A DNA stretch of 64,000 nt. Origin: Escherichia coli (GTDB taxonomy: Bacteria > Pseudomonadota > Gammaproteobacteria > Enterobacterales > Enterobacteriaceae). The stretch lies in NCBI RefSeq assembly GCF_024298765.1, contig NZ_CP101210.1, one strand, 5' to 3'. Positions within the stretch are counted from its first letter, which is position 1. Every line of letters begins with the position of its first letter. The position numbers were made by a program, and so were the translations under genes. Shown here one piece after another: positions 58,821 to 61,576 of this stretch. The notes beneath the pieces are model-generated. The model ran no database searches and was not told where the DNA came from. It saw nothing but the letters and a program-made list of their open reading frames with translations.

Positions 58821-59960
58821 ATGAGCGCGGGAAGCCCAAAATTCACCGTTCGCCGCATTGCGGCTTTGTCACTGGTTTCGCTATGGCTGGCAGGCTGTTC
58901 TGACACTTCAAATCCACCGGCACCGGTCAGCTCCGTTAATGGCAATGCGCCTGCAAATACCAATTCTGGTATGTTGATTACGCCGCCGCCGAAAATGGGG
59001 ACGACGTCTACAGCGCAGCAACCGCAAATTCAGCCGGTACAGCAGCCACAAATTCAGGCTACTCAACAACCGCAAATCCAGCCAGTACAGCCAGTAGCTC
59101 AGCAGCCGGTACAGATGGAAAACGGACGCATCGTCTACAACCGTCAGTATGGGAACATTCCGAAAGGCAGTTATAGCGGCAGTACCTATACCGTGAAAAA
59201 AGGCGACACACTTTTCTATATCGCCTGGATTACTGGCAACGATTTCCGTGACCTTGCTCAGCGCAACAATATTCAGGCACCATATGCGCTGAACGTCGGT
59301 CAGACCTTACAGGTGGGTAATGCTTCCGGTACGCCAATCACTGGCGGAAATGCCATTACCCAGGCCGACGCAGCAGAGCAAGGAGTTGTGATCAAGCCTG
59401 CACAAAATTCCACCGTTGCTGTTGCGTCGCAACCGACAATTACGTATTCTGAGTCTTCGGGTGAACAGAGTGCTAACAAAATGTTGCCGAACAACAAGCC
59501 AACTGCGACCACGGTCACAGCGCCTGTAACGGTACCAACAGCAAGCACAACCGAGCCGACTGTCAGCAGTACATCAACCAGTACGCCTATCTCCACCTGG
59601 CGCTGGCCGACTGAGGGCAAAGTGATCGAAACCTTTGGCGCTTCTGAGGGGGGCAACAAGGGGATTGATATCGCAGGCAGCAAAGGACAGGCAATTATCG
59701 CGACCGCAGATGGCCGCGTTGTTTATGCCGGTAACGCGCTGCGCGGCTACGGTAATCTGATTATCATCAAACATAATGATGATTACCTGAGTGCCTACGC
59801 CCATAACGACACAATGCTGGTCCGGGAACAACAAGAAGTGAAGGCGGGGCAAAAAATAGCAACCATGGGTAGCACCGGAACCAGTTCAACACGCTTGCAT
59901 TTTGAAATTCGTTACAAGGGGAAATCCGTAAACCCGCTGCGTTATTTGCCGCAGCGATAA
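58821..59960 (+). CDS. nlpD: Murein hydrolase activator lipoprotein NlpD (LysM plus M23 peptidase domain)
   Basis: 379-aa ORF; lipobox LAGCS, Q/P-rich repeats, LysM and M23 domains. Confidence 0.92.
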
Positions 59961-60022: not shown

Positions 60023-61015
60023 ATGAGTCAGAATACGCTGAAAGTTCATGATTTAAATGAAGATGCGGAATTTGATGAGAACGGAGTTGAGGTTTTTGAC
60101 GAAAAGGCCTTAGTAGAAGAGGAACCCAGTGATAACGATTTGGCCGAAGAGGAACTGTTATCGCAGGGAGCCACACAGCGTGTGCTGGACGCGACTCAGC
60201 TTTACCTTGGTGAGATTGGTTATTCACCACTGTTAACGGCCGAAGAAGAAGTTTATTTTGCGCGTCGCGCACTGCGTGGAGATGTCGCCTCTCGCCGCCG
60301 GATGATCGAGAGTAACTTGCGTCTGGTGGTAAAAATTGCCCGCCGTTATGGCAATCGTGGTCTGGCGTTGCTGGACCTGATCGAAGAGGGCAACCTGGGG
60401 CTGATCCGCGCGGTAGAGAAGTTTGACCCGGAACGTGGTTTCCGCTTCTCAACATACGCAACCTGGTGGATTCGCCAGACGATCGAACGGGCGATTATGA
60501 ACCAAACCCGTACTATTCGTTTGCCGATTCACATCGTAAAGGAGCTGAACGTTTACCTGCGAACCGCACGCGAGTTGTCCCATAAACTGGACCACGAACC
60601 AAGTGCGGAAGAGATCGCAGAGCAACTGGATAAGCCAGTTGATGACGTCAGCCGTATGCTTCGTCTTAACGAGCGCATTACCTCGGTAGACACCCCGCTG
60701 GGTGGTGATTCCGAAAAAGCGTTGCTGGACATCCTGGCCGATGAAAAAGAGAACGGTCCGGAAGATACCACGCAAGATGACGATATGAAGCAGAGCATCG
60801 TCAAATGGCTGTTCGAGCTGAACGCCAAACAGCGTGAAGTACTGGCACGTCGATTCGGTTTGCTGGGGTACGAAGCGGCAACACTGGAAGATGTAGGTCG
60901 TGAAATTGGCCTCACCCGTGAACGTGTTCGCCAGATTCAGGTTGAAGGCCTGCGCCGTTTGCGCGAAATCCTGCAAACGCAGGGGCTGAATATCGAAGCG
61001 CTGTTCCGCGAATAA
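60023..61015 (+). CDS. rpoS: RNA polymerase sigma factor RpoS (sigma-38)
   Basis: Track ORF 59987-61015 trimmed to the ATG at 60023 ([17 protein letters not shown], 330 aa); no internal stop. Confidence 0.96.
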
Positions 61016-61135: not shown

Positions 61136-61576
61136 CTATTTGCTCATCATCTTGCGCACCAGCTGCATAAACAGCTCCTGCTCTTCTCCACTCAAACGCC
61201 CCAAAAATTCCTCATCCACACTGTCACCTATCGGTATCGCCGCAGCAAGTATCTTTTCGCCTTCGGCAGTCAGCCAGACAAAGCGTCGCCGCTTGTCAGC
61301 GGCGTCATGTTCACGTCTGACTAAGCCACGATTTTCCATTCTTGCCAACATTTCTGCCAGCGTTGCTTTGGTGCTGACTGCTGCTTCTATCAGTGCCACC
61401 TGTTCGATACCAGGCTTATCAGCAATGGCGCGCATCACCGCGTACTGTGGTTTGGTCAGGTCAGGTAACTCGTGCTGCCAGCGAGCTGTATGCTGCTGAA
61501 AAAGCTGTCGTAACTGATGGAACGCTTTATTTCGTAACGCCATGTAAACTCCGGGCAAACTATCTGCCGCTATCAT
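61136..61576 (-). CDS. MarR/SlyA-family transcriptional regulator (rpoS-mutS variable region)
   Basis: 146-aa ORF with a winged-helix MarR-like core; divergent from the downstream decarboxylase genes. Confidence 0.8.
   Translation of the reverse strand: MIAADSLPGVYMALRNKAFHQLRQLFQQHTARWQHELPDLTKPQYAVMRAIADKPGIEQVALIEAAVSTKATLAEMLARMENRGLVRREHDAADKRRRFVWLTAEGEKILAAAIPIGDSVDEEFLGRLSGEEQELFMQLVRKMMSK

Follow-up and report, generated by a model that had tools for sequence, protein, structure and literature searches.

The nlpD gene of Escherichia coli contains a Gln/Pro-rich stretch whose DNA appears to be repeated in tandem, and this raises the questions of whether the repeat is real, whether its length differs between strains, and what such differences would mean for the lipoprotein that carries it and for rpoS, the gene located downstream. 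We have addressed these questions in a window of E. coli DNA, i.e., the whole stretch of 64,000 nt that was analyzed, and in complete E. coli genomes and related species. All the features described below lie on the plus strand unless otherwise stated.

The repeat array in the N-terminal linker of NlpD

The ORF list contains a CDS at 58821-59960 that encodes 379 amino acids plus the stop codon, and the RefSeq genomes label this region nlpD. A preliminary description of this DNA, made from the sequence alone, had assigned the gene to nlpD, and this assignment holds. The product is an exact match of NLPD_ECOLI in a sequence cluster look-up, and its translation contains a lipobox L-A-G-C (residues 23-26; 58887-58898) with the lipid-anchored Cys26 (58896-58898) as residue 1 of the mature protein. 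A LysM domain (residues 123-165; 59187-59315; Pfam PF01476, E = 2.7e-12) is followed by a C-terminal Peptidase_M23-like domain, i.e., a degenerate LytM domain (residues 279-372; 59655-59936; Pfam PF01551, E = 4.6e-33). Both in the ORF list and in the RefSeq genomes, the gene is flanked by surE and pcm upstream and by rpoS downstream, giving the order pcm-nlpD-rpoS. G25 and C26 are invariant among the 34 Enterobacteriaceae orthologues that we have aligned. The N-terminal linker that connects the lipid anchor with the LysM domain (residues 27-122; 58899-59186) contains no Pfam domain.

According to the accessible part of the work of Tsang, Yakhnina and Bernhardt (2017; PMC5533458), NlpD is a lipoprotein of the outer membrane and serves, at the division site, as an activator of the septal amidase AmiC. 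Its LysM domain is both required and enough for localization to the septum, and an NlpD(1-115) fusion, carrying the N-terminal linker alone, shows weak enrichment at midcell. In the same part, both linkers of NlpD are predicted by DISOPRED to be disordered, and long linkers are expected to allow NlpD to contact the wall from the outer membrane.

Concerning the start codon, all 16 fetched RefSeq records (16/16) place the nlpD start downstream of 58821, at a TTG located 45 nt further on (58866; 364 aa) or, in the case of OkiPb01695, slightly later. A later start would truncate the signal peptide; the ATG at 58821 yields the 379-aa NLPD_ECOLI sequence.

Within the linker, the translation, TRF, a repeat search and shuffling delimit a Gln/Pro-rich imperfect array that encodes residues 66-98 (59016-59114). 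It is composed of three imperfect 24-bp units, i.e., CAGCAACCGCAAATTCAGCCGGTA (QQPQIQPV; 59016-59039), CAGCAGCCACAAATTCAGGCTACT (QQPQIQAT; 59040-59063) and CAACAACCGCAAATCCAGCCAGTA (QQPQIQPV; 59064-59087), followed by a 12-residue tail made of QPV plus QPVAQQPVQ. With TRF, 59019-59083 was recognized as an array of period 24 (2.7 copies, 70% matches, score 67), and the repeat search yielded three 28-nt copies spaced by 24 nt with 71-89% identity. Units 1 and 3 share 21 of their 24 nt and encode the same octapeptide with 3 synonymous differences, while neighbouring units match at 15-17 of 24 nt. The best in-frame self-match of the whole gene has a period of 24 and lies near 59010, with 33 of 48 positions matched. 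Shuffling the codons of the gene gave 24.5 +/- 1.3 matches with a maximum of 29 (n = 300), and shuffling the linker codons alone gave 23.7 +/- 1.6 (n = 300); none of the 300 shuffles reached 33/48 in either case. The period-24 match is thus beyond all the shuffles, and the repeat is confirmed.

The tandem repeat that had been reported earlier was therefore real, and the peptide quoted for it corresponds exactly to residues 66-98; the tract was also rightly placed in a Gln/Pro-rich linker of NlpD, the N-terminal one, which is predicted to be disordered in the accessible part of PMC5533458. Its span of 58975-59115 does contain the repeat, but the left edge was set about 40 nt too early, since 58975-59015 encodes 14 non-repeat residues.

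Shorter direct repeats are embedded in the array. Direct-repeat enumeration detected an 11-nt homology, CAACCGCAAAT, in unit 1 (59019-59029) and again in unit 3 (59067-59077), both copies being seen also in alignments of the -48 bp alleles described below. TRF revealed an exact 9-bp tandem duplication of CAGCCAGTA, encoding QPV QPV (59079-59096), at a site where most other strains carry the imperfect CAGCCAGTG CAGCCAGTA rather than two exact copies. Finally, the 12-nt sequence CAGCCGGTACAG is present in two exact copies (59031-59042 and 59103-59114), and the repeat search found a third copy with one mismatch at 59079. The stretch with the array is bounded by the sequences CCGAAAATGGGGAC and TGGAAAAYGG. 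A 22-nt direct repeat with 73% identity, GAAAATGGGGACGACGTCTACA / GAAAACGGACGCATCGTCTACA, brackets the array at 58991-59012 and 59118-59139; its copies are 127 nt apart, which does not preserve the frame, and none of the alleles observed has its breakpoints in them.

Length alleles and their breakpoints among E. coli genomes

The sample comprised 5,426 complete RefSeq E. coli genomes, which are a biased sample, and the region was present in 5,420 of them. One length is shared by 98.6% of these genomes, and about 74 of the 5,420 (1.4%) have a non-standard length. In about 61 genomes the three units are reduced to one (-48 bp), the region spanning 213 nt versus 261 nt in the standard allele, and the RefSeq nlpD CDS is intact and 48 nt shorter. 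Five units (+48 bp) were found in a single genome of the search, PapRG-04-4, of baboon source. Seven genomes have lost one copy of CAGCCAGTA (-9 bp), reducing QPV from two copies to one; a 3.47-kb alignment of three of these seven carriers (from Germany, the USA and Japan) showed a single differing base, and hence the -9 bp genomes are, on this comparison, one clone. Four genomes have gained one copy of CAGCCAGTA (+9 bp), and thus the QPV sub-repeat is seen at one, two and three copies. The strain Z142-6 is the single genome with a 72-bp loss (-72 bp). Every length allele seen is a multiple of 3, with the RefSeq CDS intact at the matching length. Hence, the strain-level length polymorphism anticipated in the preliminary description exists, though the alleles are rare, and the repeat number, whose identity in all strains had been named as the refuting observation, takes values of one, three and five units.

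The number of units steps by two (48 bp) and not by one. Single-unit (24-bp) alleles were bridged at 85-87% identity in blastn mode in a simulation, and no such change was detected in the 80-90% band of the blastn census or in the 90-95% band of the duplication-query search, both of which were empty. The census is blind to changes of 3 or 6 bp and, besides the alleles named above, one further record was present in the 90-95% band of the deletion query. These queries carried a synthetic 45-nt deletion or duplication and were run in blastn mode, where the true indel alleles outrank the standard one, as simulated locally beforehand. The identity bands obtained with the standard allele recover the -9, +9 and -72 bp alleles and miss the -48 and +48 bp alleles entirely, because the latter align as two pieces with about 98% identity and 88-100% coverage. 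This is a warning about the method, since summaries of BLAST identity and coverage conceal changes in repeat copy number when each half gives a near-perfect alignment of its own.

Other search designs were discarded. A composite query of 169 junction-specific probes was non-discriminating because the units resemble each other, and all the genomes matched it via gapped or mismatched alignments. A synthetic +48 bp query in megablast mode was uninformative, the standard alleles scoring 100% coverage in two pieces. Outlier records corresponding to alleles of E. albertii or of cryptic Escherichia clades were rejected; these alleles are carried by no E. coli genome.

Among the -48 bp genomes, 28 have the sequence of TW14359 throughout the 213-nt query, and those labelled with a serotype are all O157:H7; about 33 others make up the remainder. 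The O157:H7 group includes TW14359, EC4115 and SS17, three strains assigned to clade 8. SS17 has been assigned to this clade and clusters with the spinach-outbreak strains in a study that does not mention nlpD (PMC4321836). The -48 bp allele may be a simple marker of an O157:H7 sublineage to which the spinach-outbreak strains belong. Position 58956 has C instead of A in both O157 alleles, i.e., in the three-unit ATCC 43894 and the one-unit TW14359, changing Asn to His (ANTNSG to AHTNSG); this change looks like an O157-lineage substitution older than the 48-bp loss.

The flanking sequences show that the losses and gains are recurrent. The SNP haplotype that flanks the -48 bp allele of TW14359 is that of the three-unit O157 strain ATCC 43894; P276M has flanks identical to those of the three-unit K-12-like strain 2A; PEC145 has K-12-like flanks, a different junction (GTGCAGC) and the unit-1 codons ATT CAG CCG GTG retained; and OkiPb01695 represents a third flanking haplotype. 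Since both the flanking haplotypes and the junctions differ, the -48 bp allele has arisen at least four times, one of them within O157:H7. The +9 bp allele is found in two different flanking backgrounds with different codons, and therefore has at least two origins.

All the length changes are in frame and occur at short direct repeats. The commonest -48 bp junction, i.e., that of the TW14359, P276M and OkiPb01695 types, falls within CAACCGCAAAT; the -9 and +9 bp changes occur at the CAGCCAGTA duplication; and the -72 bp deletion of Z142-6 extends exactly between the two exact copies of CAGCCGGTACAG, with its left breakpoint in the first and its right breakpoint in the second. Misalignment of units 1 and 3, by two units, yields the -48 and +48 bp alleles, and the step is of two units rather than one because these units are the most alike (21/24 versus 15-17/24 nt). 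In the same way, the 9-bp QPV duplication gives rise to the -9 and +9 bp alleles, and the two exact 12-nt copies to the -72 bp allele. The cause could be replication slippage or unequal recombination, either of which fits the sequence.

Two explanations would deprive these observations of their meaning. The apparent repeat could reflect a mere Gln/Pro composition bias without true periodicity, as Gln plus Pro amount to 57% of residues 55-100 (from GMLIT to the NG of MENGRIVY); nevertheless, the linker-codon shuffles never reach the period-24 match (0/300), which refutes this explanation, and the breakpoints of the natural alleles coincide with the predicted direct repeats, so that we grant it practically no probability. 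The length variants could also be artefacts of assembling or aligning a repetitive stretch, E. coli being in fact monomorphic. BLAST does split these alleles into pieces, and the -72 and +48 bp alleles, each present in one genome, could in principle be assembly errors. Against this, the same -48 bp allele is found in 28 separately assembled complete genomes of the O157:H7 type and in about 33 others, the -9 bp allele occurs in seven genomes and three countries and also in an independent 376-aa protein record, and the units have diverged enough (15-21/24 nt) to be assembled unambiguously. That the variation is artefactual is thus extremely improbable.

Six of the 5,426 complete genomes gave no match to the nlpD repeat region. 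In the O55:H7 strain DEC5A there was a spurious 49-nt match in another gene, which suggests that the 5' part of nlpD has been lost. In addition, in one record with the label E. coli the 5' part of nlpD is only 80-90% identical over 580 nt and unlike that of E. albertii, which may be due to an error in the label or to import of the allele.

Conservation of the tract and its position relative to rpoS

The comparison across species used loci from 80 Enterobacteriaceae species, 34 orthologues of which were included in the alignment. Three units are present in three other Escherichia lineages and four in E. albertii. In the other genera the outer motifs PQIQPVQ ... QPVQ are all that is present, and unit 2, whose QIQAT part is Escherichia-specific, is missing; in fact, residues 77-81 of this unit are gaps in 31 of the 34 aligned orthologues. 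When a metagenome collection was scanned for exact flanking anchors separated by an additional 1-31 nt, two contigs were recovered; the two are E. albertii-like (about 91% identity to the window over 10-14 kb) and carry the four-unit allele. The distance from Cys26 through the residue before LysM ranges from 83 to 107 aa in the 80 species (median 93). In E. coli, the same distance is 97 in the standard allele, 81, 94, 100 and 113 in the variants, and 73 in Z142-6.

We aligned six full-length E. coli alleles (that of the window and five fetched). Five of them encode the same tract peptide despite differing by 2-6 nt over the 161-nt repeat query region; the sixth, from ABU 83972, has one V-to-M change. 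Compared with E. whittamii, the tract shows pS = 0.58 and pN = 0.05. In the 34-sequence alignment, Q90 and V97 are invariant, and Q71, P72, P76, Q85 and P96 are at least 90% conserved. Because the substitutions in the tract are almost all synonymous, the peptide is, as far as these comparisons tell, under selection while its copy number is tolerated. The conservation of the peptide while the DNA drifts argues against a function at the DNA level and for a constraint on the residues.

These observations are compatible with a tract whose main role would be that of a flexible spacer, connecting the lipid-anchored Cys26 with the peptidoglycan-binding LysM domain, where changes from -24 to +16 residues would be tolerated and the residue pattern would still be selected. 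The synonymous bias and the family-wide conservation of PQIQPVQ and QPVQ count against a pure spacer, being more than it needs. The linker is predicted to be intrinsically disordered, both by the DISOPRED result in the accessible part of PMC5533458 and from its 57% Gln/Pro composition; AlphaFold2 run on the 34-sequence alignment gave a mean pLDDT of 33 over the whole protein, poor even in the folded domains. Taken together, we propose with a probability of about 0.85 that the feature is a protein-coding minisatellite in the N-terminal tether of NlpD, in which length variants of the flexible spacer are tolerated and the residue pattern is selected.

Since the array lies in the gene that precedes rpoS, its position relative to the rpoS signals was also determined. 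The rpoS leader is 567 nt long (PMC10948607), and subtracting it from the rpoS ATG at 60023 places the expected start site at about 59456. An internal rpoS promoter can be read from the sequence at the corresponding position (59422-59456), i.e., TTGCGT (59422-59427), a 17-nt spacer and TATTCT (59445-59450), with the start at about 59456; the consensus promoter scan did not call TTGCGT-17-TATTCT. The last position of the array is 59114, which precedes the expected start site by 342 nt; with the -35 match at 59422, the array overlaps neither the rpoS core promoter nor its known upstream sites. Scans of the region found no promoter-like or terminator-like sites and no Rfam matches in the array. 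The earlier statement that the tract lies upstream of the internal rpoS promoter is therefore true by position only, 342 nt away, and no role in rpoS transcription is indicated.

The proposal of a tolerated spacer has to be weighed against three alternatives. QQPQIQPV could be a functional short motif that contacts a partner or the septal peptidoglycan, its copy number tuning the strength of the contact, an idea that overlaps with the main explanation. The nearly exclusive synonymous substitutions, the invariant Q90 and V97, the highly conserved Q71, P72, P76, Q85 and P96 and, in the accessible part of PMC5533458, the weak midcell enrichment of NlpD(1-115) would all fit such a motif; but one-unit alleles have at least four origins and are present in a large group of O157:H7 genomes, genera other than Escherichia lack unit 2, and the putative contact has no known partner, so that the motif is possible but rather doubtful. 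A repeat acting on nlpD-rpoS expression at the DNA or RNA level, e.g., as a protein-binding array, would take advantage of its location, since it is part of the nlpD-rpoS transcription unit and precedes the internal rpoS promoter. This is very improbable considering the 342 nt that separate the array from the expected start site, the lack of promoter-like or terminator-like sites and of Rfam matches in the array, and the drift of third-codon positions across strains and species with a fixed peptide, which is the opposite of the pattern of a DNA motif; moreover, the authors of the Salmonella UK-1 study place their nlpD deletion outside the rpoS promoter region (PMC3391293). It is also conceivable that the length of the tether is itself under selection, the recurrent loss of two units (16 residues), which an O157:H7 group with clade 8 strains carries, altering the reach of NlpD to the septal wall, and we regard this as unlikely. 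If true, selection on length would alter AmiC activation, envelope robustness or, via the shared transcript, RpoS output, and the array would be a slow tuning knob and not neutral drift.

Some observations concern the neighbourhood of rpoS rather than the array. The synonymous divergence from E. whittamii is 0.35-0.58 in codons 65-165 of nlpD (59013-59315) and about 0.07 in codons 166-379 (59316-59957). The slow half of the gene (codons 166-379) comprises the 567-nt leader of rpoS as well as the internal promoter, and its low divergence could reflect a double DNA constraint or a recombination boundary. The rpoS gene of the window (60023-61015) is intact and has Glu at codon 33, unlike K-12 MG1655, which has Gln at this codon. 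In the strain 13E0780 of the -9 bp clone, which is set apart from the other members of the clone by one base in 3.47 kb (locus position about 2771), RefSeq flags rpoS as a pseudogene with an internal stop. Directly downstream of rpoS there is an ORF of 146 aa on the minus strand (61136-61576) that presumably resembles a MarR/SlyA-type regulator. The rpoS-mutS interval varies among E. coli lineages.

Relation to known repeats and linkers

Coding VNTR or minisatellite repeats are known in bacterial envelope proteins, and the spacers of Lpp, TolA and TonB act as length-dependent periplasmic tethers. The NlpD array shares with these systems the in-frame low-complexity spacer units, the variation of copy number between strains and the changes mediated by direct repeats. 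It resembles a VNTR in that its copies exceed chance, its copy number differs at the strain level, and its changes are recurrent and have their breakpoints in the repeats; it differs in that there are only 1-5 units, which have diverged, in that alleles other than the standard one are rare (1.4%) and not known to be linked to a phenotype through their length, and in that the polymorphism, with 98.6% of the genomes sharing one length, does not reach the high level used for typing. Phase-variable simple-sequence contingency loci also have repeat-driven variation. Those loci switch by frameshift, whereas the units found here are long and imperfect, the alleles stay in frame, and no on/off switching of frame or promoter was observed; the array does not belong to that class. 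The feature is therefore an ordinary kind of variation, i.e., a coding minisatellite located in a linker of low complexity. In the searchable literature we found neither this spectrum of alleles nor the step of two units nor the recurrence of the -48 bp allele, including its occurrence in the O157:H7 sublineage, and they are a minor new observation.

The linker studied by Tsang et al. is the same region (residues 27-122), leading from the lipid anchor to the septum-targeting LysM domain. In the accessible part of PMC5533458 it is treated as a single block, with no mention of the internal repeat or of the natural length alleles seen here; the question of tether length is raised there, and in that part the linker length was not varied. 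The alleles described above provide a natural allelic series, with 1, 3, 4 and 5 units plus an allele without the middle of the array, for testing the effect of tether length in amidase activation.

A strain-specific 12-bp in-frame deletion in nlpD has been described in Salmonella Typhimurium UK-1 (PMC3391293) and is, like the alleles reported here, a strain-level in-frame indel of this gene. It differs from them in the species, in its size and in being a single event, recurrence being shown only for the E. coli alleles. Read by eye, the sequence deleted in UK-1 (reverse complement CGCCGCAACAAG) would correspond to QQAPQ, a stretch found in Salmonella at the matching position.
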